A stretch of 64,000 nt of DNA from Escherichia coli (GTDB taxonomy: Bacteria; Pseudomonadota; Gammaproteobacteria; Enterobacterales; Enterobacteriaceae): assembly GCF_051903065.1 (NCBI RefSeq), contig NZ_CP178438.1. The stretch is one strand, 5' to 3'. Positions 8,183-64,000 of the stretch are shown piece by piece. The notes under the pieces are model-generated. The model was not told the DNA's origin. It worked only from the letters and a program-made list of their open reading frames with translations, and searched no databases. The first letter of the stretch is position 1. Every line of letters begins with the position of its first letter. The position numbers were made by a program, and so were the translations under genes.

Positions 8183-8524
8183 ATGCGAATATTTGTCTAC
8201 GGCAGTTTACGCCACAAACAAGGCAACAGTCACTGGATGACCAATGCCCAGTTACTGGGCGATTTCAGTATCGATAACTACCAGTTGTATAGCCTGGGCC
8301 ACTATCCAGGCGCAGTTCCGGGGAACGGAACGGTACACGGTGAAGTTTATCGTATTGACAACGCCACGCTGGCCGAACTTGATGCCTTGCGCACCAGGGG
8401 CGGTGAATACGCGCGCCAGTTGATTCAGACGCCGTACGGGAGTGCATGGATGTACGTTTATCAACGACCCGTCGATGGATTAAAGCTAATTGAAAGCGGC
8501 GACTGGTTAGACAGGGATAAGTAA
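8183..8524 (+). CDS. ytfP: gamma-glutamylcyclotransferase family protein YtfP
   Basis: 113-aa ORF MRIFVYGSLR... (AIG2-like YGSL motif) immediately after tamB. Confidence 0.85.
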   Translation: MRIFVYGSLRHKQGNSHWMTNAQLLGDFSIDNYQLYSLGHYPGAVPGNGTVHGEVYRIDNATLAELDALRTRGGEYARQLIQTPYGSAWMYVYQRPVDGLKLIESGDWLDRDK

Positions 8525-8735
8525 CCCTATGCATACGCCACCTTCGGGTGGCGTTGTTTTTTGCGAGACGACTCGCATTCTGTTTTGTAATTCCCTCACC
8601 TTTTGCTTTTCTCTCCGAGCCGCTTTCCATATCTATTAACGCATAAAAAACTCTGCTGGCATTCACAAATGCGCAGGGGTAAAACGTTTCCTGTAGCACC
8701 GTGAGTTATACTTTGTATAACTTAAGGAGGTGCAG

Positions 8736-8987
8736 ATGCGTATTACCATAAAAAGATGGGGGAACAGTGCAGGTATGGTCATTCCCAATATCGTAATGAA
8801 AGAACTTAACTTACAGCCGGGGCAGAGCGTGGAAGCGCAGGTGAGCAACAACCAACTGATTCTGACACCCATCTCCAGGCGCTACTCGCTTGATGAACTG
8901 CTGGCACAGTGTGACATGAACGCCGCGGAACTTAGCGAGCAGGATGTCTGGGGTAAATCCACCCCTGCGGGTGACGAAATATGGTAA
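8736..8987 (+). CDS. chpS: ChpS antitoxin (MazE-like)
   Basis: MRITIKRWGNSAGMVIP AbrB/MazE-type fold; RBS aaggagg 5 nt upstream of ATG 8736; 7-nt overlap with chpB. Confidence 0.9.
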   Translation: MRITIKRWGNSAGMVIPNIVMKELNLQPGQSVEAQVSNNQLILTPISRRYSLDELLAQCDMNAAELSEQDVWGKSTPAGDEIW

Positions 8988-9331
8988 AGAAAAGTGAATT
9001 TGAACGGGGAGACATTGTGCTGGTTGGCTTTGATCCAGCAAGCAGCCATGAACAGCAAGGTGCTGGTCGACCTGCGCTTGTGCTCTCCGTTCAAGCCTTT
9101 AATCAACTGGGAATGACGCTGGTGGCCCCCATTACGCAGGGTGGAAATTTTGCCCGTTATGCCGGATTTAGCGTTCCTTTACATTGCGAAGAAGGCGATG
9201 TGCACGGCGTGGTGCTGGTTAATCAGGTGCGGATGATGGATCTACGCGCCCGGCTGGCAAAGCGTATTGGTCTGGCTGCGGATGAGGTGGTGGAAGAGGC
9301 GTTATTACGCTTGCAGGCGGTGGTGGAATAA
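8981..9331 (+). CDS. chpB: ChpB toxin (MazF-family endoribonuclease)
   Basis: 116-aa ORF, PemK/MazF-like, overlapping the upstream antitoxin gene. Confidence 0.9.
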   Translation: MVKKSEFERGDIVLVGFDPASSHEQQGAGRPALVLSVQAFNQLGMTLVAPITQGGNFARYAGFSVPLHCEEGDVHGVVLVNQVRMMDLRARLAKRIGLAADEVVEEALLRLQAVVE

Positions 9332-9410
9332 GGTGTGTTTATTTATCGCGGGCATAAAAAAACCCTTACTAACCGAAGCCCGGCGTTCAGGGTTATTGCG
9401 CTAGAAGAAC

Positions 9411-11214: not shown

Positions 11215-11335
11215 TATGCCTGATGCCGATTCGTAGGCCGGATAAGGCGCTCGCGCCGCATCCGGCGATGGTGCACTGAAGCCTGATGCGACGCTTACCG
11301 CGTCTTATCATGCCTACTGGGAGCACGCTTTACAC
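11215..11335. repeat. REP/BIME palindromic elements
   Basis: gtaggccggataaggcg...gccgcatccggc and gcctgatgcgacgc...gtcttatcatgcctac motifs. Confidence 0.6.
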
Positions 11336-17454: not shown

Positions 17455-17570
17455 TCAGCCTGAGATAGTGTGCGTAGGCCGGATAAGGCGTTCACGCCGC
17501 ATCCGGCATTTGAGCATAGTGCCTGATGCGACGCTTGATGCGTCTTATCAGGCCTACAGGTGCACCGCAT
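17455..17570. repeat. REP/BIME palindromic elements
   Basis: gtaggccggataaggcgttcacgccgcatccggca and gcctgatgcgacgcttgatgcgtcttatcaggcctac. Confidence 0.65.
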
Positions 17571-27684: not shown

Positions 27685-27777
27685 GTTGCCAGCAGGTATT
27701 ATATCGCCATAGATGCTACGAATATTATTGGATTCTCCTTATTATTTGCGGCGCTTTTTTCACTTACCGGAGGTTAT

Positions 27778-27831
27778 ATGGAACCTGATCCCACGCCTCT
27801 CCCTCGACGGAGATTAAAACTTTTCCGGTAA
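27778..27831 (+). CDS. mgtL: proline-rich leader peptide MgtL of the mgtA Mg2+-sensing leader
   Basis: 17-codon [20 protein letters not shown] in the mgtA 5' leader. Confidence 0.8.
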
Positions 27832-27971
27832 GCCCGTCTTTTCACGGCGTTACCGGATGCGTAAGGCCGTGACGTTTTAACGTCCCTGCTCAGCTTTATT
27901 ACCTTCAGGTAAGGCTTCGCCACGCCTGAAGACATTTCTGTACTGTTTCAGACAGTGCGGAGGGACTCCTT

Positions 27972-35661: not shown

Positions 35662-35826
35662 TGACTTTTCGCCGTAAATAACTCCAGGTTTACGGCGAGT
35701 TTGTGAAAAGAGCGTTTTTTGATATTTTTTTGTGAGTAAAATTTGTAATGCTTAGACGTTCTTATTAACTCAAGGAGTTCGTCATGAGCAAAATATCAGA
35801 TTTGAATTATTGGTAATGACTCCAAC

Positions 35827-36330
35827 TTATTGATAGTGTTTTATGTTCAGATAATGCCCGATGACTTTGTCATGCAGCTCCACCGATTTTGAGAACGACA
35901 GCGACTTCCGTCCCAGCCGTGCCAGGTGCTGCCTCAGATTCAGGTTATGCCGCTCAATTCGCTGCGTATATCGCTTGCTGATTACGTGCAGCTTTCCCTT
36001 CAGGCGGGATTCATACAGCGGCCAGCCATCCGTCATCCATATCACCACGTCAAAGGGTGACAGCAGGCTCATAAGACGCCCCAGCGTCGCCATAGTGCGT
36101 TCACCGAATACGTGCGCAACAACCGTCTTCCGGAGCCTGTCATACGCGTAAAACAGCCAGCGCTGGCGCGATTTAGCCCCGACATAGCCCCACTGTTCGT
36201 CCATTTCCGCGCAGACGATGACGTCACTGCCCGGCTGTATGCGCGAGGTTACCGACTGCGGCCTGAGTTTTTTAAGTGACGTAAAATCGTGTTGAGGCCA
36301 ACGCCCATAATGCGGGCTGTTGCCCGGCAT
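35827..36330 (-). CDS. insB: IS1 transposase InsB (expressed as InsAB' by frameshift)
   Basis: 167-aa [30 protein letters not shown]... Confidence 0.9.
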
Positions 36331-36524
36331 CCAACGCCATTCATGGCCATATCAATGATTTTCTGGTGCGTACCGGGTTGAGAAGCGGTGTAAGTGAACT
36401 GCAGTTGCCATGTTTTACGGCAGTGAGAGCAGAGATAGCGCTGATGTCCGGCGGTGCTTTTGCCGTTACGCACCACCCCGTCAGTAGCTGAACAGGAGGG
36501 ACAGCTGATAGAAACAGAAGCCAC
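36249..36524 (-). CDS. insA: IS1 protein InsA
   Basis: 91-aa [43 protein letters not shown] (Zn finger). Confidence 0.9.
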
Positions 36525-36646
36525 TGGAGCACCTCAAAAACACCATCATACACTAAATCAGTAAGTTGGCAGCATCACCCACTGCATAAATTAATGTGAT
36601 GCCGGGATGTTTTTTGTGTTTCCCGGCATCTTTATAGCGATATCAA

Positions 36647-43544: not shown

Positions 43545-43870
<326 letters not shown>

Positions 43871-43876
43871 ACGCAA

Positions 43877-45391
<1,515 letters not shown>

Positions 45392-49500: not shown

Positions 49501-49629
49501 GAGATTTCCTCCAGTTTCCTGCCTGGAGTATAGGCAACGGCTGCGCACTCTTCACCGCTAAATTCAGCAGATTGCGAGACGCCTTCCAAAGAGATTTAAG
49601 TGCCGGGCGACAGGCACCCGGCAAAGGGA

Positions 49630-50649
49630 TCAGAAGTCGGCTTTCAGGACCACTCGGTAGCGCGCTTTACCATCGCGCACATGCTTGATGGCGTCGTTAA
49701 TTTTCGACATCGGGAACAGTTCGGTAGTCGGCGCAACCTTGCTGCGGGCGGCAAAGCGCATCAGCTTACGCAACTCATAAGGCGTGCCGGTAGCAGAACC
49801 AGAGACGCTGCGGTCGCCCGCAATTAACGTAAAGGCCGGAACAGACAGCGGCGTGAGGACCGCACCGACCGTATGGAAATTACCGCCATAGGTCAGCGCC
49901 TCAAAATAGGGCTGCCAGTCGAGGCTGACGTTGACGGTGTTGATAATGAGATCAAACTGCCCCGCCAGTGCTTTCAGTGCCTGTGGATCGCGGCTATTCA
50001 CCACTTTATCGGCACCCATCGCCAGCACTTCCTGCTCTTTCGCCGGATTAGAACTAAAGGCCGTCACCTCGCATCCCATTGCGTGCAGAAGTTTTATAGC
50101 GATATGCCCCAGCCCGCCAATACCAATTACCCCAACGCGGCTGGTAGCAGTGATATGGTGCATCAACAGTGGTTTAAAGACCGTGATACCGCCGCACAAC
50201 AGCGGCCCGGCGGACTCGATATCAATATTTTCTGGCAGTGGAATCACCCATTGCCAGTCCGCACGCAACTTCTCGGCAAAGCCACCGCGATTCATAATCG
50301 TCGGCACCGCACCTTGCTCGCAGTTGATCTGATTACCGCTAATACAGGCGTCGCAGTGACCACAGCTACGCGCCGTCCAGCCAATCCCGACACGCTGACC
50401 GACCTGCAAACCTTTATCCTGCGCGGCGCTCCCGAGTGCCACCACGCGACCAATCACCTCATGCCCGGCAACCAGCGGATATTGTGAAAATCCCCATTCG
50501 TTATCGATCATCGACAGATCGGAATGGCAGATCCCGCAGTAATCCACCTGCACTTCAACATCTTGTGGCTTCAGTTCACCGGGATCGTACTCATAAACTT
50601 CCAGTTCGCCGCCTGCTTCTTTTGCGGCATAGCTTTTTATCATCGACAT
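49630..50649 (-). CDS. ahr: NADPH-dependent aldehyde reductase Ahr (Zn-dependent alcohol dehydrogenase family)
   Basis: [10 protein letters not shown]...GHEVIG...GIGGLGH motifs; 339 aa from ATG 50649. Confidence 0.9.
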
Positions 50650-50844: not shown

Positions 50845-50929
50845 GCCGAAGTGGCGAAATCGGTAGACGCAGTTGATTCAAAATCAACCGTAGAAATACG
50901 TGCCGGTTCGAGTCCGGCCTTCGGCACCA
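50845..50929 (+). tRNA. leuX: tRNA-Leu (anticodon CAA)
   Basis: 85-nt sequence gccgaagtggcgaaatcggtagacgcagttgattCAAaatcaacc...ggttcgagtccggccttcggcacca with D-arm, long variable arm, T-arm and CCA end. Confidence 0.95.
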
Positions 50930-50942
50930 AAAGTATGTAAAT

Positions 50943-50967
50943 AGACCTCAACTGAGGTCTTTTTTTA
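50943..50967 (+). terminator. rho-independent terminator of leuX
   Basis: Hairpin agacctc-aact-gaggtct followed by T7. Confidence 0.75.
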
Positions 50968-51042
50968 TGCCTGAAATCCAGTGTTTATCTACCTTTCCCG
51001 CTATATTAACTCTCTCAAGGTCAACCGATATCAACGTACATC

Positions 51043-51060
51043 TACCAACATATGTTGGTA
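51043..51060. promoter_or_regulatory. perfect 18-bp palindrome upstream of integrase gene
   Basis: taccaacatatgttggta, with a further half-site ttgtaccaacag about 40 bp downstream; possible integrase or repressor binding site. Confidence 0.3.
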
Positions 51061-51115
51061 CAGATGATGGTATTTCCGGTTCGATAATGCTTGTACCAAC
51101 AGGGAGGGAATACGC

Positions 51116-52381
51116 ATGGCATTAACAGATATCAAAGTCAGAGCAGCCAAGCCAACGGATAAGCAATATAAGCTGACTGATGGTGGCGGTATGCATCTGC
51201 TTGTCCATCCAAATGGTTCTAAGTACTGGCGTTTGCAGTACCGTTATGAGGGAAAGCAAAAAATGCTGGCACTTGGGGTTTATCCTGAAATCACACTAGC
51301 GGATGCCAGAGTACGTCGTGACGAGGCGCGTAAGCTGCTTGCGAATGGCGTCGATCCGGGAGACAAAAAGAAAAATGATAAGGTTGAACAGAGTAAAGCA
51401 CGAACCTTTAAAGAAGTCGCGATTGAGTGGCATGGCACCAATAAAAAGTGGTCTGAAGATCACGCCCATCGTGTGCTAAAAAGTCTGGAAGATAATCTTT
51501 TTGCAGCGCTTGGTGAACGTAATATCGCTGAGTTAAAAACTCGAGATTTATTAGCACCCATTAAGGCCGTAGAAATGTCTGGACGTCTTGAAGTGGCCGC
51601 TCGTCTTCAGCAGCGCACTACAGCCATCATGCGCTATGCAGTGCAAAGTGGGTTAATTGATTATAACCCGGCACAAGAGATGGCTGGGGCGGTTGCTTCC
51701 TGTAATCGACAACATCGTCCCGCGCTTGAATTAAAGCGCATCCCTGAGTTGCTTACAAAAATAGATAGCTATACTGGTAGGCCGCTAACCCGATGGGCGA
51801 CAGAACTCTCTTTGCTGATCTTTATTCGGTCCAGTGAGCTGCGTTTTGCTCGTTGGTCAGAGATCGATTTCGAAGCGTCTATATGGACTATCCCACCGGA
51901 GCGGGAGCCTATTCCTGGAGTGAAACATTCCCATAGAGGCTCAAAAATGCGTACAACGCATCTAGTGCCTCTTTCAACGCAAGCTCTTGCAATTTTAAAG
52001 CAGATAAAACAGTTTTGTGGGGCCCATGACTTGATATTTATTGGTGATCACGATTCGCACAAACCCATGAGTGAGAATACGGTAAATAGTGCGTTACGGG
52101 TCATGGGGTATGATACAAAAGTAGAGGTTTGTGGTCATGGCTTTCGAACAATGGCCTGTAGTTCATTGGTCGAATCAGGTTTGTGGTCTCGTGATGCTGT
52201 TGAACGTCAGATGAGCCACATGGAGCGAAATTCAGTGAGGGCCGCGTATATCCATAAAGCAGAGCATCTGGAAGAACGCCGCTTGATGCTACAATGGTGG
52301 GCCGATTTTCTGGATGCAAACAGAGAAAAATTTATCAGTCCATTTGAATATGCAAAGATTAATAATCCATTAAAACAGTAA
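51116..52381 (+). CDS. P4-type tyrosine integrase (IntB-like) marking a leuX-integrated island
   Basis: 421-aa ORF immediately 3' of a tRNA gene, N-terminal MALTDIKVRAAKP...KYWRL typical of P4 integrases, C-terminal catalytic region with conserved HxxR and Tyr; RBS agggaggg. Confidence 0.9.
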   Translation: MALTDIKVRAAKPTDKQYKLTDGGGMHLLVHPNGSKYWRLQYRYEGKQKMLALGVYPEITLADARVRRDEARKLLANGVDPGDKKKNDKVEQSKARTFKEVAIEWHGTNKKWSEDHAHRVLKSLEDNLFAALGERNIAELKTRDLLAPIKAVEMSGRLEVAARLQQRTTAIMRYAVQSGLIDYNPAQEMAGAVASCNRQHRPALELKRIPELLTKIDSYTGRPLTRWATELSLLIFIRSSELRFARWSEIDFEASIWTIPPEREPIPGVKHSHRGSKMRTTHLVPLSTQALAILKQIKQFCGAHDLIFIGDHDSHKPMSENTVNSALRVMGYDTKVEVCGHGFRTMACSSLVESGLWSRDAVERQMSHMERNSVRAAYIHKAEHLEERRLMLQWWADFLDANREKFISPFEYAKINNPLKQ

Positions 52382-52704
52382 TCATCCCGGGCAAATGCCC
52401 GGGAACTTACTCCATGAATATTTTCTTTGTTAAAAAGGCAAAACGATATTAACTGATGTATTAAATGTTTACCGGATTGCTCCCTGCAGGTGGATTATCA
52501 GAATCCGCAGTTATTCGTTATTTATATATATTCAATAAAAAGAAACATCATAAAAAATCCCGCACCCACAGGGTGATGCGGGATAACTGACGTAAGGAAT
52601 GTTACCGGGATTTGGTGGTCCCTTGTGCTGATATGAATACAGGTTCTATTCTATACAGAATCCTTTTCAGTACAAGAGACTGTATTACAGTTTGCCATAT
52701 ATGA

Positions 52705-54204
52705 TTACCTGTGGTCCGGAAGAATAAGTGGCTGCGGTTTCAGACTGTCTGCCGGCACATTTTTCTCTCCGTTAAAAACCATAACGGGTTCATTATCTTC
52801 GTCTGTCAGCGGATTGAATGGCGGTATATTTTCGGTACGAATACCGGTCAGCCACTGAAAAATGCCTGCGAAATTACGGGCACTGATTTTCCTGCTGACG
52901 GACTGATGAGACGTGATGTCACTGGCGGTAATAATCAGGGGAACGCTGTAGCCCCCCTGCACATGACCATCATGATGAACAGGATTAGCACTGTCGCTGA
53001 CCGACAGCCCATGGTCAGAAAAGTAAAGCATTGCAAAGTGACGGGAATGCCGGCGAAGGATACCATCAAGCTGACCGAGAAAGTTATCCAGTTTACTGAT
53101 GCTGGCGAGGTAACAGGCAATCTTTCGGGGATACTGCTCCAGGTAATAATTCGGCCAGGAGTTAAGTCGGTCACACGGATTCGGATGAGAGCCAATCATG
53201 TGCAGGAAAATCACCTTCGGCGAGGATTTATCCGCCAGCGCACGTTCTGTTTCCTGTAACAACAACATGTCATCCGTTTTACGGGAAGCGAAGCTGCCTT
53301 TCTTGAGGAAAACGGTATGCTCCGCATCAGAAGCAATAACAGAGATGCGTGTGTCATGCTCTCCCAGTTTTCCCTGATTGGATATCCACCATGTGCTGTA
53401 TCCTGCTTTTGCTGCCAGCGCCACCACGTTGTTGCCGGAGTCAGGGTTCTGCTCATAGTCATAAATCAGTGTCCGGCTCAGGGAAGGTACGGTACTGGCT
53501 GCTGTCGATGTATAGCCGTCAATAAATAAACCGGGAGCAGTATTCAGCCACGGCGTGGTTGGCACGGGATAGCCATATACCGACATATAATCCCTGCGCA
53601 CACTCTCACCAGTAACGATAACAATCGTGTCATACAACGGCACACCCGGCAGGATTTTCCAGTTATCAGCCCCGTGCTGACTCAGTTGTTTATAACGCTG
53701 CATTTCACGCAATGTGTCAGTTGTCCCCACAACAGTTCCTTTAACCATCCGCAACGGCCAGCTGTTTACAGAGCATAATACGAATAGCAGCAGTGCCAGC
53801 CAGTTACGGTGACCGCGGTGGTGTGTCCGCCAGAAAATCACCATGAATACCAGAATCGCGGCACTGACCAGAAAATGATAAACAGGAATCATCCCGGTAA
53901 ACTCTGCAGCCTCATCAGCCGTGGTCTGCAGCAACGCGACAATAAAACTGTTGTTGATTTTACCGTACGTCATACCCGCAGGCGCATACAGTGCACAACA
54001 GAACAGAAATAACAGCGCTGTAATGGATGTGAGGGTATTTCTGTGTGCAAGGAGAAGAAGGAGAAACAGAAGCAGCACATTTCCTGTGGCATTCTTCTCA
54101 GTGTATCCGCATGCAATTGTGGTTATTGCAGAAACAACAAAAAAGAATAAAAACAATAAAATCCGGGGTGTGTTTCCCGGACAAAACAGTTTTCTGATAT
54201 TCAT
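52705..54204 (-). CDS. sulfatase-family inner membrane protein, phosphoethanolamine transferase-like (EptA/OpgE family; yjgX-like)
   Basis: 499-aa ORF with N-terminal TM helices and C-terminal sulfatase-type domain (HMIGSH...SDHG). Confidence 0.75.
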   Translation of the reverse strand: MNIRKLFCPGNTPRILLFLFFFVVSAITTIACGYTEKNATGNVLLLFLLLLLAHRNTLTSITALLFLFCCALYAPAGMTYGKINNSFIVALLQTTADEAAEFTGMIPVYHFLVSAAILVFMVIFWRTHHRGHRNWLALLLFVLCSVNSWPLRMVKGTVVGTTDTLREMQRYKQLSQHGADNWKILPGVPLYDTIVIVTGESVRRDYMSVYGYPVPTTPWLNTAPGLFIDGYTSTAASTVPSLSRTLIYDYEQNPDSGNNVVALAAKAGYSTWWISNQGKLGEHDTRISVIASDAEHTVFLKKGSFASRKTDDMLLLQETERALADKSSPKVIFLHMIGSHPNPCDRLNSWPNYYLEQYPRKIACYLASISKLDNFLGQLDGILRRHSRHFAMLYFSDHGLSVSDSANPVHHDGHVQGGYSVPLIITASDITSHQSVSRKISARNFAGIFQWLTGIRTENIPPFNPLTDEDNEPVMVFNGEKNVPADSLKPQPLILPDHR

Positions 54205-54363
54205 CGGAGTATATCGACAACATTATGATGAAGAGAACAGGATAATAAAAATCAGAAATTATCTGTAAAACAGATAACAGACAACCCTGCAGTATAATTA
54301 CTGCAGGGTGTTTCCTTTTAATTACAGAAGATAAGTAATTATTATCTTTCAGGAGCAGTTTCG

Positions 54364-55104
54364 TCAGAAGTTATAAGTCACACCAAGCATGATGTCATGA
54401 CTTTTAACATCAACCTCTGATTTATATTTATCGCCCCACTCATCCTTGTAACTCACACTGCTGTCACCTGCATCAATATAGCGATAGCTGAGGTCAAGAG
54501 CGATATCCGGGGTTACGTCATAACGGACACCAGCCCCAAGGCTCCATGCAAAGTTGTCAGCAGAGTCTGAGTGTGACAACGACTCACGCCCACTGTACCC
54601 GTACCCATAATCCCAGGTACTGATACCAGTTGTTTTCTGATGAATTCTGGCGTAACCAATCCCTGCGGATACCCATGGTGTGAATGCACTGTCGTTCCGG
54701 AAGTCATAGTACGTATTCAGCATCAGAGTGTTGACTGACACTTCATTCTTCAGGTCATCACGCCAGTAACCACCTGACCAGCTGTCTTTATCTACGTTAT
54801 ACTTCGAATCAGCTTTTCCACGCGCGTAAAACTCCAGTTCTGTACGAACCGGAATACTGAACTGCGGATAAAAATCATAACCGGCCGCAATACCGCCACT
54901 GAATACCGTATCATGGTCATCGCCGCCTTTATACTTTGACGTTTCTTCCTCATCTCCTGACAGGAAACGCTGGTCTGAAAGTGACACCACAGAGGCACCG
55001 GCTTTACCGGTCAGATAAAAACCGCTTTTACCTTCCTCAGCACCTGCATTTGCTGCAAATACACAGGCTGCGGCCACCACTGAAACAGCAAAAACCTTTT
55101 TCAT
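54364..55104 (-). CDS. outer membrane beta-barrel protein (OmpA-like transmembrane domain family)
   Basis: 246-aa ORF with signal peptide MKKVFAVSVVAAACVFAANAGA, alternating aromatic/hydrophobic beta-strand pattern and C-terminal ...GVTYNF. Confidence 0.7.
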   Translation of the reverse strand: MKKVFAVSVVAAACVFAANAGAEEGKSGFYLTGKAGASVVSLSDQRFLSGDEEETSKYKGGDDHDTVFSGGIAAGYDFYPQFSIPVRTELEFYARGKADSKYNVDKDSWSGGYWRDDLKNEVSVNTLMLNTYYDFRNDSAFTPWVSAGIGYARIHQKTTGISTWDYGYGYSGRESLSHSDSADNFAWSLGAGVRYDVTPDIALDLSYRYIDAGDSSVSYKDEWGDKYKSEVDVKSHDIMLGVTYNF

Positions 55105-55455
55105 TTCAATTATCTCCGTTATTGCTCCGTTGCTGCAAGCAGTACTCAGTGCATTTTAAAACCCGCCATGCGATAGTCTCAATTGAATAAAATCGATCTA
55201 ATCGATAGATGATATCGATCGTCATTAACCAGAAATTTTTATCGTATTCAGTCAGCACAGATACAACAAATGCATGCCATGCAGACAGTCATACCCGGCA
55301 ACAACAGCAGATGGTTGCTGAGCAAGCAGGGAGTGAGGCTGAATCCCGGGGAAGAAAAAACCTGTAAAATTTGTTTATTCTGCCAGGAGATAAAAGTGAC
55401 GTGTGTTCATGTAACACACCAGGGACGAAAGATGCATGGACTGACAGTTTGGGGG

Positions 55456-56512
55456 GGCTTTGTTGAATAAATCGAACTTTTGCTGAGTTGAAGGATCAGA
55501 TCACGCATCCTCCCGACAACACAGACCATTCCGTGGCAAAGCAAAAGTTCAGAATCACCAACTGGTCCACCTACAACAAAGCTCTCATCAACCGTGGCTC
55601 CCTCACTTTCTGGCTGGATGATGAAGCGATTCAGGCCTGGTATGAGTCGGCAACGCCTTCATCACGAGGAAGGCCCCAGCGCTATTCTGATCTCGCCATC
55701 ACCACCGTTCTGGTGATTAAACGCGTATTCCGGCTGACCCTGCGGGCTGCGCAGGGTTTTATTGATTCCATTTTTGCCCTGATGAACGTTCCGTTGCGCT
55801 GCCCGGATTACACCAGTGTCAGTAAGCGGGCAAAGTCGGTTAATGTCAGTTTCAAAACGTCCACCCGGGGTGAAATCGCACACCTGGTGATTGATTCCAC
55901 CGGGCTGAAGGTCTTTGGTGAAGGCGAATGGAAAGTCAGAAAGCACGGCAAAGAGCGCCGTCGTATCTGGCGAAAGTTGCATCTTGCTGTTGACAGCAAC
56001 ACACATGAAGTTGTCTGTGCAGACCTGTCGCTGAATAACGTCACGGACTCAGAAGCCTTCCCGGGCCTTATCCGGCAGACTCACAGAAAAATCAGGGCAG
56101 CCGCGGCAGACGGGGCTTACGATACCCGGCTCTGTCACGATGAACTGCGCCGCAAAAAAATCAGCGCGCTTATTCCTCCCCGAAAAGGAGCAGGTTACTG
56201 GCCCGGTGAGTACGCAGACCGCAACCGTGCCGTTGCTAATCAGCGGCTGAGCGGAAGCAATGCACGGTGGAAATGGACAACGGAATATAACCGTCGCTCG
56301 ATAGCGGAAACGGCAATGTACAGAATGAAGCAGTTGTTGGGAGATTCACTGACGCTGCGTGACTACGATGGTCAGGTAGCGGAAGCTATGGCCATGGTGC
56401 GTGCGTTGAACAGGATGACAAAGGCTGGGATGCCAGAAAGCGTGCGTATTGCCTGAAAATCCAGCCAGCTACAGGGTCGTTCGCACGAAATCTTATTTAT
56501 TCAACAAAGCCC
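55456..56512 (+). mobile_element. IS903-group insertion sequence (IS5 family), about 1057 bp
   Basis: Left end ggctttgttgaataaatcgaacttttgctgagttgaaggatcag and inverted right end ...tcttatttattcaacaaagcc; single transposase ORF; no flanking 9-bp direct repeat. Confidence 0.85.
55533..56456 (+). CDS. IS903-type transposase (DDE)
   Basis: ORF VAKQKFRITNWSTYNKALINRGSLTFWLDDEAIQAWYE...; start placed at in-frame GTG to give 307 aa (tool ORF begins at TTG 55488). Confidence 0.85.
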   Translation: MAKQKFRITNWSTYNKALINRGSLTFWLDDEAIQAWYESATPSSRGRPQRYSDLAITTVLVIKRVFRLTLRAAQGFIDSIFALMNVPLRCPDYTSVSKRAKSVNVSFKTSTRGEIAHLVIDSTGLKVFGEGEWKVRKHGKERRRIWRKLHLAVDSNTHEVVCADLSLNNVTDSEAFPGLIRQTHRKIRAAAADGAYDTRLCHDELRRKKISALIPPRKGAGYWPGEYADRNRAVANQRLSGSNARWKWTTEYNRRSIAETAMYRMKQLLGDSLTLRDYDGQVAEAMAMVRALNRMTKAGMPESVRIA

Positions 56513-57624
56513 ATACCCCTCTGAAAATCAGTCATCAACTCACCAACACATCTTCTGAAATCTGTATTAAACTTATTGCTTAAATAGATGATATAACACA
56601 TCTTCCATTGCACGGAATCAGCGAAAACTGTCATTCTGGCAATCTTAACAAGATCATTTATCGGTTAATTTTATCAGTAAACAATGGAATATCACACTGA
56701 TAAAATGAACATTCAGGGTAAGATGATAAAATTCACATAAAAAATGCTGAAGATTATTTATTTCATGCAGATAAACGATAAAATACAAGAGAGTATATTT
56801 TTCAGTGTAAGAGTCAATCGTTCATCTCCACTGACGATCACGGTCAGCACATAAACAAAGTGAGTCCTCCTGCTTAGTCATTGCGTATCAGAAACTAAAA
56901 AACAAAAGATTCTGTAAACAACGTGACATTTTTTATGACATTTCCCGAATACAGATATATCAACAAACAGTAGTCAGCGTTGAATTAATAAGTTTTACAG
57001 GGCTATACGTATCTTATAAAACCACTCAACGACCATCATCACCTGACTATTTAGCGGGAGTATCATCTGTATAAATTCCTAAATAATAACACCTGTTATT
57101 AAAATAAGAATGCTGTCAGCAGTAAATTATTAACATAACACCTGTCCACTCTATCTGTTCTTCTAACTCAACCGGCATCGAAAATATTGCCTGATTAGTG
57201 CATCATAGCCTTCTTTTTTCTTTCCCGACCATCAAAACAAATACAACATTTACAACCACACAATAAAACAAAACTAAAACAAAACTAAAACATAAGATTA
57301 ACAACACCAATCAACAGGAAAACACTGAATATTGAGGTGCCCTGTAACCTGGAGAGCGCATACGGCGCATGTGATCAACACAGCCCATTCTTTTCTGTCA
57401 TCCCCCAAATGCAGAACAAACAAGCATAACCTAATGAATATAAAATAAAATATTATTTTTCACCATCATAAAAACATCAATGTATCTTTATATAAAAACA
57501 CTGATAACATGACATAAACATTTAAAAACATAAACAAATCACAACAAAAACATTTGATAATCACTTAGTGACAAAATAAAATTGAGACGATTTTGTTATA
57601 AGAGAGGCGCCATGGAGTGAGATA

Positions 57625-58644
57625 ATGAATAACGAACAGATGCTTATCAAATGCAAAGATCCCCGTAAATGTCGGTTTTATGCTGAATATCTGAATCACA
57701 AATACCCCAATGAATTCCCTCAGTTTGCGCCTGACAACCCACAAAACTGTATCAGAAATGTTAATGCGTTTTTAAAAGAAAAGTATTGTAATACTTCAAA
57801 CAATTCTTTTGGTGTTTTTGGTTCGACTGCAGAAGAAGCTCTCAGCAAAGAAATTAATGAACTTGAAATTATTGCAGGGCAGGCAATACTGCCTGAAGAG
57901 AGTTTTCTCTGGTTGAAAACTGACGAACTTGCGACTTTCTTTACCTGGACTACTATTTATCTGTCGAAGGAAGACCATACAAATTTCCCGGAAATAAACC
58001 ATAATTCATCAGGGATAAAAAACGGAATTGAAGTCAGAAAAAGACGAACAGTTACCGATGAAACGTTAAATACTTACAAAAAAAGTAACCTTCCGGATAA
58101 TCCATCATCCCATAACGAACGAATAAAAGTAATCATTTTATATTTTGATTCCTGTCATTCTTTAATTAATAAAAATGCAAAAAGCATATACCTCGAGGAA
58201 CTCAGGCAGACGTGGCTTAAAAATAAAAGCGCTTGTCAAAAGTTTAAGTGGCTCCTTCCTGACGATGATGAAATGTGTCAGTGGTTCTGGACAAGACTGA
58301 AACAAAAACAGGATGAAACACATCCGGTACATAACCCGGTGACCCGGTGGTTCATACCATCTTCAACGAAAGAATATTATCTTGCCTCTCTCGTCGCCTT
58401 TGCTTTATGGAAAGAGGCACCTGATACCATTGAACTGTTCAGAACACGCATAAATCATGCCTGGCATCAAAAAAAACAAAAAGACAAATATCGGAATGAT
58501 GGTAAAAAGGCTATTAATATACATATAAGAAGCAATGCGAAAGAAATGCTTGATGAACTCAGAACTGTTTACGGTCTGAGAACAGGAGAGTTTTTTGAAA
58601 TGCTGATTACAGAAAAATATCTTGAACACAAGCGAAGGAAGTAA
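57625..58644 (+). CDS. hypothetical protein, AT-rich orphan ORF
   Basis: 339-aa ORF with RBS ggagtgag upstream; lysine/asparagine-rich, several Cys/His; no family recognised from sequence alone. Confidence 0.5.
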   Translation: MNNEQMLIKCKDPRKCRFYAEYLNHKYPNEFPQFAPDNPQNCIRNVNAFLKEKYCNTSNNSFGVFGSTAEEALSKEINELEIIAGQAILPEESFLWLKTDELATFFTWTTIYLSKEDHTNFPEINHNSSGIKNGIEVRKRRTVTDETLNTYKKSNLPDNPSSHNERIKVIILYFDSCHSLINKNAKSIYLEELRQTWLKNKSACQKFKWLLPDDDEMCQWFWTRLKQKQDETHPVHNPVTRWFIPSSTKEYYLASLVAFALWKEAPDTIELFRTRINHAWHQKKQKDKYRNDGKKAINIHIRSNAKEMLDELRTVYGLRTGEFFEMLITEKYLEHKRRK

Positions 58645-58695
58645 TTCATTACCTGTTACATTCTAAATAATCTCAGACAGATATTATCTCCGTGA

Positions 58696-58731
58696 ATCCC
58701 CCGCCACCTTTCCGGTGCGCGGGGTTTTGTC
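58696..58731 (+). terminator. putative rho-independent terminator downstream of the 339-aa ORF
   Basis: GC-rich inverted repeat ccccgc...gcgggg followed by ttttgtctttttt. Confidence 0.45.
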
Positions 58732-58753
58732 TTTTTTCACCGGGAATACATGT

Positions 58754-59581
58754 ATGAATCCGTCTGATGCCATTGAGGCAATTGAAAAACCGCTCTCCTC
58801 CCTGCCTTACTCACTTTCCCGTCACATCCTGGAACATCTGCGCAAACTCACCAGCCACGAACCCGTGATTGGCATTATGGGGAAAAGCGGGGCCGGTAAA
58901 TCCTCACTCTGTAATGCACTGTTTCAGGGGGAGGTCACCCCGGTCAGTGATGTTCACGCCGGCACCCGGGAAGTGCAGCGCTTCCGTCTGAGTGGCCATG
59001 GTCACAGCATGGTTATCACTGACCTGCCCGGGGTGGGCGAGAGCCGTGACAGGGATGCAGAGTATGAAGCCCTGTACCGTAACATTCTGCCTGAACTTGA
59101 CCTGGTACTGTGGCTGATTAAAGCCGATGACCGTGCCTTGTCTGTGGATGAGTATTTCTGGCGACACATTCTGCACCGGGGACATCAGCAGGTGCTGTTT
59201 GTGGTGACGCAGGCCGATAAAACGGAGCCCTGCCATGAATGGGATATGGCCGGTATTCAGCCTTCTCCCGCACAGGCACAGAACATTCGCGAAAAAACGG
59301 AGGCGGTATTCCGTCTGTTCCGGCCCGTACATCCGGTTGTGGCCGTATCGGCTCGCACCGGCTGGGAACTGGATACGCTGGTCAGTGCGCTCATGACAGC
59401 GCTTCCCGACCATGCCGCCAGTCCCCTGATGACCCGCCTGCAGGACGAGCTGCGCACGGAATCTGTCCGCGCTCAGGCCCGTGAACAGTTTACCGGTGCG
59501 GTGGACCGGATATTTGACACGGCGGAGAGCGTCTGTATTGCCTCTGTTGCCCGCGCGGTATGGAACTGGATTTTCTTCTGA
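58754..59581 (+). CDS. YfjP/YeeP/YkfA-family small GTPase (prophage-like island backbone GTPase)
   Basis: P-loop GIMGKSGAGKSSLCNALF, G3 DLPGVGE, G4-like TQADK, C-terminal ...ARAVWNWIFF resembling K-12 YfjP/YkfA from memory; start at ATG 58754 (tool ORF starts at GTG 58715). Confidence 0.8.
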   Translation: MNPSDAIEAIEKPLSSLPYSLSRHILEHLRKLTSHEPVIGIMGKSGAGKSSLCNALFQGEVTPVSDVHAGTREVQRFRLSGHGHSMVITDLPGVGESRDRDAEYEALYRNILPELDLVLWLIKADDRALSVDEYFWRHILHRGHQQVLFVVTQADKTEPCHEWDMAGIQPSPAQAQNIREKTEAVFRLFRPVHPVVAVSARTGWELDTLVSALMTALPDHAASPLMTRLQDELRTESVRAQAREQFTGAVDRIFDTAESVCIASVARAVWNWIFF

Positions 59582-59701
59582 ACCCGGTGGTGATGCACCA
59601 GACTCTTGTTACAGATTTTTAACTCCATGAAAACACAATGCAAACGCAGCCATACCCGGGTTGTCCCCTTGTGTTGTGTTTTCCAGATTAATAGAATGCA
59701 T

Positions 59702-59720
59702 CGATCGTTATAAACGATCG
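59702..59720. promoter_or_regulatory. perfect inverted repeat (cgatcgtt-ata-aacgatcg) about 60 bp upstream of the dynamin-like gene
   Basis: 8-bp arms with 3-bp spacer in the 200-bp gap between the two GTPase genes; candidate operator. Confidence 0.3.
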
Positions 59721-59780
59721 TTTGTGGTAAATGACCTCCTCCGTGGTTGTCATGAAAATGCGTCTCAGGAAGGTTAAATA

Positions 59781-62165
59781 ATGCACGAAAAGAACATCGC
59801 CCTGCTTTGTGATGAAGCCGACCGACTTTTGCAACTGAACATTAATCTGCTCCGGCAAATGGTTGATGAACCGGATGTGTTATCTGACAGTAAGAACGAA
59901 AACAGACTGCTTTTCGATAAACAGAAAGCACTGAAAAGAATTGAGGAGCTGGAGGGCGAACAAATCAAAACCGCCCGCAGGGAGATGGTGCTGGCTGTTG
60001 TCGGCACGATGAAAGCAGGTAAATCAACTACCATCAACGCCATTGTGGGGCAGGAAATTCTGCCTAACCGTAACCGCCCCATGACCTCTGTACCGACGCT
60101 CATCCGCCACGTTCCCGGAAAAACTGAGCCGGTCCTCCATCTGGAACATATTCAGCCCGTCCGCAATTTATTAAGCACACTGCAACAAAAACTCGACACC
60201 CCGGCAGGACAGCAAGTCGCACAGACCCTGCAGCAAACCGGGGATACCTGCGAACTGCTGGATATTCTGGCAAATGATGGCTGGCTCAAAAATGAATACC
60301 ACGGGGAGGAGGAAATCTTTACCGGACTGGCATCGTTAAACGATCTGGTTCGCCTTGCTGCGGCAATGGGGAGTGAGTTTCCTTTTGATGAATACGCAGA
60401 AGTGCAGAAACTGCCGGTGATCGACGTGGAATTCAGCCATCTGGTGGGGATGGATGCATGCCAGGGAACACTCACACTGCTGGATACCCCCGGCCCTAAT
60501 GAGGCCGGACAACCGCAGATGGAAGTGATGATGCGGGATCAACTGCAGAAAGCCTCTGCGGTGCTGGCGGTGATGGATTACACCCAGATGAACTCAAAAG
60601 CGGATGAAGACGTCCGTAAAGAGCTTAATGCCATTGCTGACGTATCAGCCGGCCGCCTGTTTGTGCTGGTCAATAAATTTGATGAGAAAGACCGCAATGG
60701 CGATGGGGCAGATGCCGTACGCCAGAAAGTTCCGGCAATGCTGAACAGTGATGTGCTGCCCGCCTCCCGCGTTTATCCAGGCTCATCACGTCAGGCGTAC
60801 CTGGCTAACCGTGCGCTTCATGAGTTACGGAAAAACGGAACCCTTCCTGTTGATGAAGCCTGGGTCGATGATTTTGTCAGGGAAGCCTTCGGTCGCATGA
60901 AAAAAGAATACGTCTGTAAAGACAGTGAAATGGCAACCGAAGGGGCGACAGACCTGTGGGAAGGTTCACTTATCGATCAACTGATAACGGAAGTCATACA
61001 GAGCTCCCATTCCAGAGCGGCGGCACTGGCGGTTGATTCTGCCGCCGCAAAACTGATGCAGAATGCGGAAAATGTCAGCGAATATCTGTCATTACGCCAT
61101 CAGGGGCTACAGCAAAGCATTCAGTCACTGCAGGCGCATATCTCCAGCCTGCTGGCGGATATCCGGGAAATCGCGGACTGTCAGGAGCAGGTGACCGCAG
61201 ATGTCAGAATGGCTATGGAGGAGATCGATACTAAAACCCGGGAATTACTGACGGGGGTCTGCACCTCACTGGAAGAGGAGCTGAATGACTATTTCAGAAG
61301 CGGTAAACGCAAAGAACAGCAAATGCTGGAGGAAGAAAATTCAGCGCAGCCCCGGGAGAGAAACGCATTCGCTTTCTTTCACGATATTTTCGGAACCGGA
61401 AATCAGCATGACAGGATGCGGGACTTTGATCCGGACAGCCCCGAAATAAAATTCAGTGATCGCAGGGAAGCCCTTGAACTGATGACGCAAATCGAATCGA
61501 CCGTGACCAGCCTGCACCGTGAGGCTGAAGCACAGTTCCGTCCTGAACTGGAAAAAATCGTCAGGGGTATTGAAACAGGTTTTCGTGGTACGGCCCTGTA
61601 CGCCACAGAAAATATTGCCGGACGCATCAATGCCCGTCTGGAGGATGAAGGTTTCACTGTAAAAATCAGTTTTCCGGCAGTCAGCCAGTTACAGACCCGG
61701 CTCGCAGTAAAAACAAATCTGAGCGCGCTTATGGAGGAAAGAACGGAGACCGTCACTCGTCGCTGTCGACAGGATGGTGTCTGGGGTACGCTTTGTCGAT
61801 GGGCAAACACCAGTGACTGGGGCTGGAAAGAGTACAGTGTGGATGTGAGCCGCAGCGTGATCAATATCAACAAGGTCAGAGAGGAAGTGATGTCACTGAC
61901 CCGGGCATATTTCGGGGAGCTGCAGGCATCCATTGAGCAGGATATTAACCAGCCCGTCCGCCAGGAAATCGATGCCTTTTTCTGCGCATTCAGGGAGAAA
62001 GTTGAACAACTGCGTAACACGCTGATTCAGAGCTCTGAAGATCGTAAACGCGATCAGCAGGCGCAGGAACGGCTTACCGGGCGACTTCAGGCATTAAATG
62101 AAAGGGTTCCTGAGCTCATTACTGACAGTAAGGCGCTGAGGGAAGAGCTGGAGACAATGCTGTGA
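59781..62165 (+). CDS. bacterial dynamin-like large GTPase
   Basis: 794-aa ORF; G1 VVGTMKAGKSTTINAIVG (res 73-90), G3 LLDTPGPNE, G4 VLVNKFDEKD, followed by about 500 aa of helical/coiled-coil stalk-like sequence; RBS caggaagg 7 nt upstream. Confidence 0.8.
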   Translation: MHEKNIALLCDEADRLLQLNINLLRQMVDEPDVLSDSKNENRLLFDKQKALKRIEELEGEQIKTARREMVLAVVGTMKAGKSTTINAIVGQEILPNRNRPMTSVPTLIRHVPGKTEPVLHLEHIQPVRNLLSTLQQKLDTPAGQQVAQTLQQTGDTCELLDILANDGWLKNEYHGEEEIFTGLASLNDLVRLAAAMGSEFPFDEYAEVQKLPVIDVEFSHLVGMDACQGTLTLLDTPGPNEAGQPQMEVMMRDQLQKASAVLAVMDYTQMNSKADEDVRKELNAIADVSAGRLFVLVNKFDEKDRNGDGADAVRQKVPAMLNSDVLPASRVYPGSSRQAYLANRALHELRKNGTLPVDEAWVDDFVREAFGRMKKEYVCKDSEMATEGATDLWEGSLIDQLITEVIQSSHSRAAALAVDSAAAKLMQNAENVSEYLSLRHQGLQQSIQSLQAHISSLLADIREIADCQEQVTADVRMAMEEIDTKTRELLTGVCTSLEEELNDYFRSGKRKEQQMLEEENSAQPRERNAFAFFHDIFGTGNQHDRMRDFDPDSPEIKFSDRREALELMTQIESTVTSLHREAEAQFRPELEKIVRGIETGFRGTALYATENIAGRINARLEDEGFTVKISFPAVSQLQTRLAVKTNLSALMEERTETVTRRCRQDGVWGTLCRWANTSDWGWKEYSVDVSRSVININKVREEVMSLTRAYFGELQASIEQDINQPVRQEIDAFFCAFREKVEQLRNTLIQSSEDRKRDQQAQERLTGRLQALNERVPELITDSKALREELETML

Positions 62166-63067
62166 CTTCACCATTTATTCAACAAATTGCTGATAACCGG
62201 GTATGTCAGGTACTCACCTGTCTTCCTGAAAAATTTGTGGTTGATTTCGCAAACGGAATCGATGTTGCACAGGAGCATATCCGCACGGCCGGAGAGCGCA
62301 CGTTCTTCCGGCGTTTAAAAGAGGGGATGACCGGCGAAGGCGCTGCACGGCAGAATGCCATCAATGCTTCGCTTGCACAGGGCGTTGAGGCGTCCCTGCG
62401 CTGGCTGACGGAGCTGACAACGTCACTTGCCACCACAAACTACGCGATTACCCGGGTAAACGACAGGGTCAGTTCACTGGTCAGTGATACTGCCAGGCTG
62501 GCGCATTATTCGGCTGACACGCGGGAGCAGTTACTCACCCTGGCCGATCAGGTTCACCAGAAACTGAATCATCTTGAAGAAAAACTCCACCGTGTTGACC
62601 AGGTTCAGCGGGCGCAGTTACATCTTGAGCAGATATTCTCATGGTGGAGCGCCGGGCGATATGCGTCATTTTCCCCTGCCGGACGTTGTTATGTGGCACT
62701 TGAAGAGCTTCGCTGGGGCGCGTTTGGTGATGTGATACGCCAGGGCGAAACAGGCCAGGTTAACCAGCTACTGGATATTCTCAGACATAAAGCATTAACG
62801 CAGATGGCACAGGAGAGTGGCGGTAGTGCAACCGTGCGTCTGAACACTCTGGACTGGCTTGGTGGTCAGGGCCGGGAGCAGGCAGATAACGAGTGGCATG
62901 ACGCGATTAACTGGCTGGGGGACTGGTGCAGTGAAGAGCAGCATCCGGTGATCTGGTCAACCACGCAGGCTGCAGAACACTTACCGGTTCGCATGCCTCG
63001 CCTCTGCTCTGCAGAACGCCTCTCTGAAAGTATGGTCGATGAAATATTTCAGAAGGGGGCAGCATGA
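62162..63067 (+). CDS. hypothetical protein of unknown function, translationally coupled to flanking genes
   Basis: 301-aa ORF whose GTG start overlaps the upstream stop (GTGA) and whose stop overlaps the downstream ATG (ATGA); predicted helical middle region. Confidence 0.55.
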   Translation: MTSPFIQQIADNRVCQVLTCLPEKFVVDFANGIDVAQEHIRTAGERTFFRRLKEGMTGEGAARQNAINASLAQGVEASLRWLTELTTSLATTNYAITRVNDRVSSLVSDTARLAHYSADTREQLLTLADQVHQKLNHLEEKLHRVDQVQRAQLHLEQIFSWWSAGRYASFSPAGRCYVALEELRWGAFGDVIRQGETGQVNQLLDILRHKALTQMAQESGGSATVRLNTLDWLGGQGREQADNEWHDAINWLGDWCSEEQHPVIWSTTQAAEHLPVRMPRLCSAERLSESMVDEIFQKGAA

Positions 63068-64000
63068 GTACAGAAATGAAAACGGGGCTGGTGCTGTCCG
63101 GCGGCGGGGCGGTGGGCGCTTATCAGGCAGGTGTGGTTAAGGCACTGGCAGAGTGTGGCACACAGATCAGCATGGTTTCAGGGGCCAGCATTGGCGCATT
63201 CAATGGTGCCATTATCGCGGCCTCTCCCGATCTGTCAGAAGCAGCCGCACGCCTGGAGGCGCTCTGGAAGCATCTGGGGAATAATCAGGTGCTGTCGGTA
63301 AACCGATCGGTTTACTTTTCATTGCTGAAAAAAATGGTTCAGGCCATGAACCTCTGCCAGATCCCCGGACGTGCAGGAGCACTGCTTACGACACTTCTTC
63401 GCCATATATCGATAATCAACGGCTTCGACAATCCGATGGCTCAGCCGCTGTTGTCAGATGAGCCTCTGACAGCGCTGTTGGATCATTATCTTGATACTGA
63501 TGCTCTGGCAGACGGGCTACCGCTGTATGTGTCGCTGTACCCCACAGAAGGGGGCATGCAGGATATTATTGACTGCATTCGTGCTGAACTGGGTGCCGGA
63601 ACCACGAAAAACGCCGTTTTTCAGCATATCCAGAGCCTGCCCCGCGGACAGCAGAAAGAGGCTCTGCTTGCGTCAGCCGCGCTGCCCCTGCTGTTCCGTC
63701 CCCGTGAGGTTCAGGGGACAATGTTCGGTGATGGTGGTATGGGAGGATGGCGAAATATGCAGGGAAATACCCCTGTGACGCCTCTGGTCGATGCCGGATG
63801 CAATATGGTGATTGTGACGCATCTGAGTGACGGTTCTTTATGGGATCGCCAGGCTTTTCCGGACACCACAATCCTTGAGATCCGTCCCCGGAAAAGGCTG
63901 AAATATGCAGGTGATGGTGGCAACAGCGGCGGTCTGCTCAGTTTCACGTTGGCACATACCGACGCCTGGCGTCAGCAGGGCTATGAAGACACGATGCTGA
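63064..64000 (+). CDS. patatin-like phospholipase (3' end beyond window)
   Basis: Oxyanion-hole GGGAVGAY, catalytic Ser in GASIG (GxSxG) and catalytic Asp in FGDGGM (DGG) in the correct order and spacing; ORF is open to the window end. Confidence 0.8.
   Translation, partial: MSTEMKTGLVLSGGGAVGAYQAGVVKALAECGTQISMVSGASIGAFNGAIIAASPDLSEAAARLEALWKHLGNNQVLSVNRSVYFSLLKKMVQAMNLCQIPGRAGALLTTLLRHISIINGFDNPMAQPLLSDEPLTALLDHYLDTDALADGLPLYVSLYPTEGGMQDIIDCIRAELGAGTTKNAVFQHIQSLPRGQQKEALLASAALPLLFRPREVQGTMFGDGGMGGWRNMQGNTPVTPLVDAGCNMVIVTHLSDGSLWDRQAFPDTTILEIRPRKRLKYAGDGGNSGGLLSFTLAHTDAWRQQGYEDTML

Follow-up and report, generated by a model that had tools for sequence, protein, structure and literature searches.

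The chpSB toxin-antitoxin operon between ytfP and ppa in Escherichia coli: a resident pair with a rare toxin allele at a locus that is decayed in part of the species

The gene pair at positions 8736-9331 of the 64-kb stretch of Escherichia coli DNA that we analysed (hereafter called the window) is, with high confidence, the resident type II toxin-antitoxin operon chpSB, which has stayed intact at its ancestral site between ytfP and ppa, and we regard this as the best explanation of the locus as a whole. The identification is based on equivalog profiles, on near-identity to the pair of E. coli K-12 and on synteny, and it agrees with the first-pass annotation, which had recognised a chromosomal, MazEF-like chpSB pair here. 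Our analysis departs from that annotation in one respect, namely its designation of the pair as a core-genome module. In E. coli, chpSB rather shows a presence/remnant dimorphism, with the intact pair and a decayed chpB remnant at a ratio of roughly 57:43.

Identity of the gene pair

Both genes are encoded on the plus strand. The antitoxin gene, chpS (chpBI), occupies positions 8736-8987 and encodes 83 amino acids (ATG at 8736, TAA at 8985-8987). It is followed at 8981-9331 by the toxin gene chpB (chpBK), which encodes a 116-amino acid predicted ribosome-independent endoribonuclease with the MazF/PemK fold (ATG at 8981, TAA at 9329-9331). The start of chpB lies inside the stop region of chpS, such that the two genes share the 7 nt ATGGTAA (8981-8987, plus strand), an overlap that implies translational coupling. 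Upstream of chpS, a Shine-Dalgarno sequence, AAGGAGG, is found on the same strand at 8724-8730, with the ATG 5 nt further on, and the GGAGG part of it is conserved in 5/5 genera (E. coli, E. albertii, Enterobacter, Lelliottia, Trabulsiella). When the reading frames were re-read, the coordinates, strand, gene order and overlap given in the first-pass annotation proved to be exact, and its strong ribosome binding site ahead of the antitoxin was likewise found. In the mechanical list of open reading frames, the chpS frame begins at a GTG at 8730; counted from the ATG, the ChpS profile covers all 83 residues (1-83).

Both proteins score far above the cut-offs of their own equivalog profiles (NCBIfam). 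ChpS reaches 196.5 bits with NF008463 (cut-off 101; residues 1-83/83), and ChpB 225.8 bits with NF007320 (cut-off 129; residues 1-116/116). At the level of Pfam families, residues 5-49 of ChpS match PF04014 (MazE_antitoxin; E = 1.3e-11), and residues 8-114 of ChpB match PF02452 (PemK_toxin; 87.8 bits against a gathering score of 23.1, E = 6.9e-25). The antitoxin thus consists of an N-terminal swapped-hairpin DNA-binding domain of the AbrB/MazE type (residues 5-49) and an acidic C-terminal tail that ends in the residues EIW. The gene layout of a type II operon is found: the antitoxin gene comes first, its product has the AbrB/MazE fold at the N-terminus, and the toxin gene overlaps with it.

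The chpSB pair has been known since 1993, and the K-12 genes (b4224/b4225) are reportedly the subject of Masuda et al. 1993 and Zhang et al. 2005. The first-pass annotation had suggested an alignment with these genes, which we carried out. ChpS is 100% identical to its K-12 counterpart at the amino acid level, and ChpB is identical in 114 of 116 residues (98.3%), the differences being G22S and H89R. The 596 nt of the coding region are 98.8% identical to K-12, and the 886-bp interval from ytfP to ppa contains 10 differences. None of these falls within 8528-8833, and hence the control region is the one of K-12. The order tamB-ytfP-chpS-chpB-ppa(-)-ytfQ-ytfR matches MG1655 at 4,447,894-4,450,918, and from 4,440,000 onward K-12 and the window are collinear. 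The K-12 operon therefore shares with the one described here its locus, neighbours, control region, gene overlap and Shine-Dalgarno sequence, and it differs in having Gly22 in place of a rare Ser22, and a minority residue, His89, where this ChpB has the majority Arg89. In RefSeq, thousands of genomes carry the chpS/chpB annotation on this stretch.

Among solved structures, the closest to ChpB is that of Kid (1m1f; E = 1.3e-20), the toxin of the Kis/Kid system (PemI/PemK) of plasmids R1/R100, and several MazF structures come next. The similarity to Kid is high enough to settle the fold of ChpB. Kid has in common with ChpB the GHEQQG...RP loop, whose first Gly is Ser here, and the PxTxGGNFAR motif. 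The Kis/Kid operon also places the antitoxin first and has a palindromic operator at its promoter, for which there is a candidate in chpSB. However, Kid is plasmid-borne, it carries Arg73/Asp75 where the ChpB family has Leu79/Asn81, and PemK/Kid cleaves at UA[ACU], whereas ChpB is described as cleaving at ACY/UAC (PMC8546651, PMC7781912).

MazE and MazF (chpA) belong to the same two fold families, PF04014 and PF02452, as ChpS and ChpB, and Arg29 and Thr52 of MazF correspond to Arg30 and Thr52 of ChpB. MazE (1mvf/1ub4) can be aligned with ChpS from end to end, including the terminal E-[IV]-W, and in MazE it is this C-terminal motif that occupies the groove of MazF. Neither toxin needs the ribosome for RNA cleavage, and their recognition motifs, ACA (MazF) and UAC/ACY (ChpB), are related (PMC8546651). 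Nevertheless, the relationship is a distant one, since the MazF and MazE equivalog profiles score ChpB and ChpS at 60 and 35 bits, respectively, which is under their cut-offs of 120 and 113. The mazEF pair moreover resides at another locus and has another operator sequence, and ChpB inhibits translation more weakly than MazF (PMC7781912).

Two states of the locus and a rare toxin allele

The distribution of chpSB among 5426 complete E. coli genomes is not that of a core gene. In 3097 of them (57%) we found the 596-nt coding region, as compared to 5425 of 5426 for both ytfP and ppa. A further 2322 genomes harbor, without annotation, a decayed 142-bp remnant of chpB, such that the two states together account for 5419 genomes; in 188 genomes, esiB is found upstream of the remnant. 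In the negative strain ATCC 8739, for instance, about 140 bp separate the conserved upstream intergenic sequence from the ppa terminator, and there is no clean empty site. The remnant aligns at about 80% identity with chpB codons ~6-41 (positions ~8995-9103 of the window) and, past the missing middle of the gene, with its final codons, GGTGGAATA[AG]. Also missing from the negative genomes are chpS, the operator and the promoter region. That these genomes carry a decayed remnant instead of a clean empty site argues for loss of the pair rather than for its gain.

A locus with three states was described earlier for 47 genomes, of which 53% had chpBS, 15% esiB and 32% neither (Pastorello et al. 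2013, PMC3735183, as excerpted). Our counts of 3097 genomes with the pair and 2322 with the remnant, 188 of the latter also with esiB, agree with these proportions, and the remnant does not figure in the passages of that paper that we consulted.

The sequence upstream of the pair differs strongly between the two states. Over 163 bp, the haplotypes are about 81% identical to each other (a difference of about 19%), whereas identity between them is 97.5-99.7% in ytfP, in ppa and at the 3′ end of tamB. In this upstream stretch, identity to E. albertii is about 88% for either haplotype, which is thus closer to that species than to its counterpart, a pattern suggestive of an old split or of introgression. 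One possibility, which we put forward tentatively and consider rather less probable than its contrary, is that the ytfP-ppa interval harbors an old two-haplotype polymorphism, intact chpSB versus remnant, whose split is at least as old as the species and which either selection has held near 57:43 or recombination has spread.

With respect to the toxin itself, the first-pass annotation had considered that a loss of the catalytic residues conserved in the MazF family would speak against a chpSB pair, but Arg30, Thr52, His23, Glu24 and Gln25 are all retained. We judged conservation in a set of 87 full-length cluster representatives of the ChpB family that are 56-98% identical. Arg30 (codon at 9068-9070, plus strand) aligns with Arg29 of E. 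coli MazF (3nfc_A) and is Arg in 86/87 representatives, and Thr52 (9134-9136, plus strand) aligns with Thr52 of MazF and is Thr in 79/87. In MazF, Arg29 is catalytic and Thr52 stabilising (PMC8887465). In Kid, by comparison, the catalytic residues are Arg73, Asp75 and His17 (PMC3879964, PMC8887465). The counterpart of His17 is retained as His23 of ChpB. In place of the acid/base pair Arg73/Asp75, however, 86/87 representatives, including K-12, have Leu79/Asn81. Because this replacement is family-wide, the chemistry of ChpB would be expected to follow the Arg/Thr scheme of MazF and not that of Kid.

The two substitutions relative to K-12 differ in how unusual they are. At codon 89 (9245-9247, plus strand), a change of nucleotide 9246 gives CGC (Arg) instead of the CAC (His) of K-12, and the position is variable across the family (E/Q/G/R/N/H). 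At codon 22 (9044-9046, plus strand), AGC (Ser) is found instead of GGC (Gly). The residue at this position is Gly in 85/87 representatives, Asp in the other two and Ser in none, and a Gly is also present at the equivalent position of Kid, of E. coli MazF and of two further solved homologues. Ser22 immediately precedes His23-Glu24-Gln25 in the β1-β2 loop, whose motif, G-[HRS]-E-Q-x-G ahead of the catalytic Arg, reads S-H-E-Q-Q-G here and is otherwise intact. This is a deviation of a single allele and does not affect the family assignment. A literature search on the equivalent glycine (Gly16 in Kid, Gly22 in MazF) returned nothing relevant.

Allele frequencies were determined with 41-nt queries that had the SNP in their center, such that the 28-nt word seeds only if the SNP matches. 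With this approach, Arg89 was found in 2608 complete E. coli genomes, which makes His89 of K-12 the minority form and Arg89 that of the majority. Ser22 was found in 6 of the 5426 genomes, a count that is a lower bound because exact words of this length can miss genomes with a second SNP nearby.

Since G22S alters a near-invariant glycine, full toxicity of the Ser22 protein cannot be taken for granted. It has to be considered, then, whether the substitution attenuates or inactivates the toxin within a structurally intact pair and marks an early step on the path to decay, which would leave an operon that is mainly a harmless antitoxin and repressor. The conservation of Gly22, its location next to the His-Glu-Gln residues in a loop over the active site and the rarity of the Ser22 allele would fit with this, as would two further facts: the locus is prone to loss, the path to decay having been completed in 43% of E. 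coli, where the 142-bp remnant alone is left, and ChpB of K-12 is already a weak toxin (PMC7781912). Still, we think this unlikely. The chpB reading frame is complete and keeps the residues discussed above, the exchange of Gly for Ser is a small one, and the only other substitution, H89R, affects a variable site. Furthermore, the exact ChpB protein (S22, R89) is found on 650 contigs in a large protein collection, together with an unchanged antitoxin, which argues for a successful lineage in which the allele is stably kept. In the reading that we prefer, an intact resident operon, we assume that the Ser22 protein is still active. If it were not, the G22S allele could represent a third state within the two-haplotype polymorphism suggested above, with a toxin that is attenuated in situ.

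Control region and a possible mode of action

On its upstream side, the chpSB control region is bounded by the intrinsic terminator of ytfP (8535-8554, plus strand), a hairpin of the form ACGCCACC-TTCG-GGTGGCGT that is followed by a T-run and has 8 pairs, 6 of them G-C. The fold of 8530-8600 has a free energy of -25.1 kcal/mol (z = -3.8), and the terminator is invariant across the five genera.

Closer to the genes, the palindrome GTTATAC-TTT-GTATAAC (8705-8721; 7-3-7) constitutes the central part of an imperfect inverted repeat that extends over 8691-8735, with 21-nt arms that are 76% complementary. Across E. coli, E. albertii, Enterobacter, Lelliottia and Trabulsiella, the palindrome shows almost no variation, whereas the other intergenic DNA diverges, and it is absent from the chpSB-negative haplotype. 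Palindromic operators are known from mazEF and parD (PMC3879964). On the grounds of this analogy and of the near-invariance over five genera, the palindrome is likely the operator for ChpS or for the ChpS-ChpB complex. Within it, and conserved along with it, lies the hexamer TATACT (8707-8712, plus strand), which resembles a -10 element and which, judging from its sequence, may be that of the chpS promoter. A scan for the σ70 consensus on the plus strand upstream of chpS gave no full match, and by eye there is no credible -35 element for TATACT.

A second candidate element, a perfect CRP-S core (TGCGA-N6-TCGCA), is located at 8562-8577 and might be the Sxy/CRP site of an upstream chpSB promoter. 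The half-site that defines CRP-S is TGCGA (PMC1635313). This is the only perfect match in the 64 kb, with 0.13 expected, but 12 of 100 shuffles contained at least one, such that the core by itself is statistically not compelling. It is kept at 10/10 positions in E. albertii, and Lelliottia and Trabulsiella keep 9/10; the Enterobacter copy is altered, and that of the esiB haplotype is degraded. Its assignment fits with the report, attributed to Sinha 2009 in PMC11951105, that overexpression of sxy induces chpSB. CRP-S promoters act in a class I-like manner (PMC6728893), and by eye there is no -10 element at class I distance from the core. Cameron & Redfield 2006 mention neither chpS nor ytfP. 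The same 16 nt also score as a second small hairpin just past the ytfP terminator, and this hairpin could belong to termination instead of CRP-S control.

In this context, a parallel can be drawn to hicAB, which has a CRP-S promoter, P1, and a second promoter, P2, that is repressed by the antitoxin. It is a hypothesis that chpSB is organised alike, with the core at 8562-8577 and the palindrome with its -10-like hexamer at 8705-8721 in the corresponding roles. Both operons are reported to be induced by Sxy. The proteins of the two systems are unrelated, however, and hicAB has the reverse gene order, with the toxin gene ahead of the antitoxin gene.

Downstream of chpB, the only structure is the hairpin with U-run of the ppa terminator (9361-9394, minus strand). 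Read on the plus strand it has no U-run, and no plus-strand terminator was called after chpB. A scan of the whole window with Rfam gave no RNA family in 8500-9400, and for this reason we dropped an overlapping sRNA or antisense element as a candidate.

Taken together with the literature on K-12, these elements suggest how the operon may work. Both genes would be translated from a single mRNA with the strong Shine-Dalgarno sequence ahead of chpS; from gene order and overlap, the antitoxin would be made first, and translation of chpB would be coupled to that of chpS. The AbrB/MazE-type domain of ChpS would serve for dimerisation and DNA binding, and its acidic tail would neutralise ChpB by filling the RNA-binding groove of the toxin dimer. 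ChpS, with or without ChpB, would most likely repress the operon at the palindrome, where it would cover the TATACT hexamer, and the CRP-S core, 129 bp upstream of the palindrome, would probably provide a second input that depends on Sxy and CRP. When the labile ChpS is degraded faster than it is resynthesised, free toxin would result, and the ChpB dimer would then cut single-stranded RNA at ACY/UAC without the ribosome and cause a partial shutdown of translation. The function of the operator, the position of the promoter and the role of the CRP-S core are what we infer from the region itself, and the RNase activity, its specificity and the induction by Sxy are carried over from published work on chpSB of K-12. 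According to this work, ChpBK cleaves at ACY in vitro and lowers protein synthesis only partly (PMC7781912), and in vivo ChpB cuts at U^AC, independently of the ribosome and without special transcript targets (PMC8546651).

Origin and significance

Genes of the same size, encoding 83 and 116 amino acids, follow tamB-ytfP in E. albertii, Enterobacter, Lelliottia and Trabulsiella, and the 7-nt overlap is identical in 4/4 orthologous loci from other genera. On account of this shared position, gene size and overlap, chpSB is an old, vertically inherited resident that has been partly lost in E. coli, and not a recent insertion.

This history also bears on a possible function in defence against phages. 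Toxin-antitoxin systems, and specifically MazEF, have been tied to phage exclusion (PMC7781912), and the presence of chpSB varies within the species as it does for many defence genes, so that anti-phage defence by abortive infection might be thought of as its main role. We consider this very improbable and have rejected it as unsupported, since no family of PADLOC-DB v2 matches ChpS or ChpB at E ≤ 0.001. In addition, the pair is surrounded by housekeeping genes at a site that is shared by at least five genera, and this speaks for old vertical inheritance and not for a mobile defence island, and no phage phenotype of chpSB is reported in the literature that we found. The first-pass annotation had pointed to candidate defence cargo in the same window. 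Such defence-like cargo does exist, at the leuX island, but the island lies about 42 kb away from chpSB and is unrelated to it.

A recent acquisition of the pair as a mobile addiction module, akin to a plasmid cassette of the pem/parD type, is barely credible and largely refuted: although the closest solved homologue is the toxin Kid of plasmid R1, chpB was first identified as a chromosomal homologue of pem (PMC7781912), chpSB-like sequence occurs on three plasmid records and the pair varies in presence among E. coli, we rejected a recent plasmid origin because insertion site, overlap and operator are common to E. albertii, Enterobacter, Lelliottia and Trabulsiella, with protein divergence (68-90%) that tracks the distance between genera, because the flanks contain no repeats, integrase or IS, and because negative E. 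coli harbor the decayed remnant.

That chpSB and esiB alternate at this site has been published before, as has the biochemistry of chpSB, and the discovery value of the pair as such is small. What the present analysis adds is the correction of its core-genome status together with the remnant haplotype, the rare G22S allele, the conserved candidate operator palindrome and the CRP-S core. The palindrome and the core provide concrete positions at which the poorly described regulation of chpSB can be tested, and G22S is a natural variant that may be used to probe the β1-β2 loop of the MazF-family RNases. For E. coli as a species, it follows that chpSB should not be counted as core when toxin-antitoxin content is judged, and that genomes scored as chpSB-negative in fact hold an unannotated, decayed chpB.

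Decayed and mosaic copies of chpB, and esiB at the same site

A decayed chpB remnant of 142 bp, which carries no annotation, was found in 2322 of the 5426 complete E. coli genomes surveyed. In E. coli ATCC 8739, for example, it lies at positions 2006-2147 of the compared locus (L002), at the site equivalent to window 8687-9336. The copies fall into two identity classes, one of at least 99% (1528 genomes) and one of 90-95% (687 genomes, e.g., APEC O1), so that the remnant must itself be old.

E. coli HH45 carries a mosaic version of the remnant (L012:560-925), in which chpB codons ~6-40, 99% like the intact gene and with Gly22, are fused to the 3′ portion of the remnant in its common form. PGAP labels this copy as a partial PemK/MazF pseudogene. 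Immediately upstream lies sequence rich in G/C homopolymers, and this stretch looks like low-quality assembly.

The site can also harbor an inserted gene. In E. coli MS20659, esiB (L004:2189-3661), which encodes a secretory IgA-binding protein, sits between ytfP and the chpB remnant, the site corresponding to window 8525-8735, and the ytfP-terminator region is present twice, flanking esiB on each side. esiB was found in 188 of the 5426 genomes, again in two identity classes (at least 99% in 167 genomes, 90-95% in 21). Furthermore, chpSB-like sequence, including the Arg89 41-mer, is found in three E. coli records of the complete-genome collection that are labelled as plasmids.

Repeats, K-12 differences and the leuX island

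Four naRNA4 (REP-type) elements are present in the window, at 11236-11314, at 17477-17554 and, as a tandem pair, at 43629-43802 near 43.7 kb, where the alignment to K-12 also displays a duplication or offset of approximately 100 bp. The mgtA Mg2+ riboswitch lies at 27763-27878, and a match to Ysr276 (44636-44830) runs antisense to the pepA-lptF region. According to the same alignment, the window carries ~770 bp of different sequence (35811-36580) where K-12 has yjgL (4,475,464-4,477,242), and it lacks the idnRTODK cluster (K-12 4,490,102-4,495,190), with ~90 bp left at window 49539-49630.

An island follows the tRNA-Leu(CAA) gene leuX (50845-50929), the whole stretch including leuX covering window 50845-64000. 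It carries an intact P4-type integrase (51116-52381), yjgX (EptA/sulfatase-like, 52705-54204) and an OMP beta-barrel protein (54364-55104), the latter two on the minus strand, an IS5-family transposase (55488-56456), an ORF of 339 aa (57625-58644) for which a Pfam search gave no match, a YeeP-like GTPase (58715-59581), a dynamin-family protein of 794 aa (59781-62165) and a YjcZ/RdcB-like protein (62162-63067). RefSeq product names for the matching stretch in other genomes, given for the stretch as a whole, include a patatin-like phospholipase. PADLOC returned only weak matches on the island, to LeoBC/LeoA. The complete 10-kb arrangement was found in one of the 5426 complete genomes.

The 3′ flank of chpSB in other genera

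Downstream of chpB, the place of ppa is taken by MFS sugar transporters and RbsD/FucU in E. albertii (L006:3404-6351), and by a TonB-dependent receptor in Lelliottia (L010:3460-6351). The 3′ side of chpSB is thus a recurrent point of rearrangement or insertion, the tamB-ytfP-chpSB side being stable.
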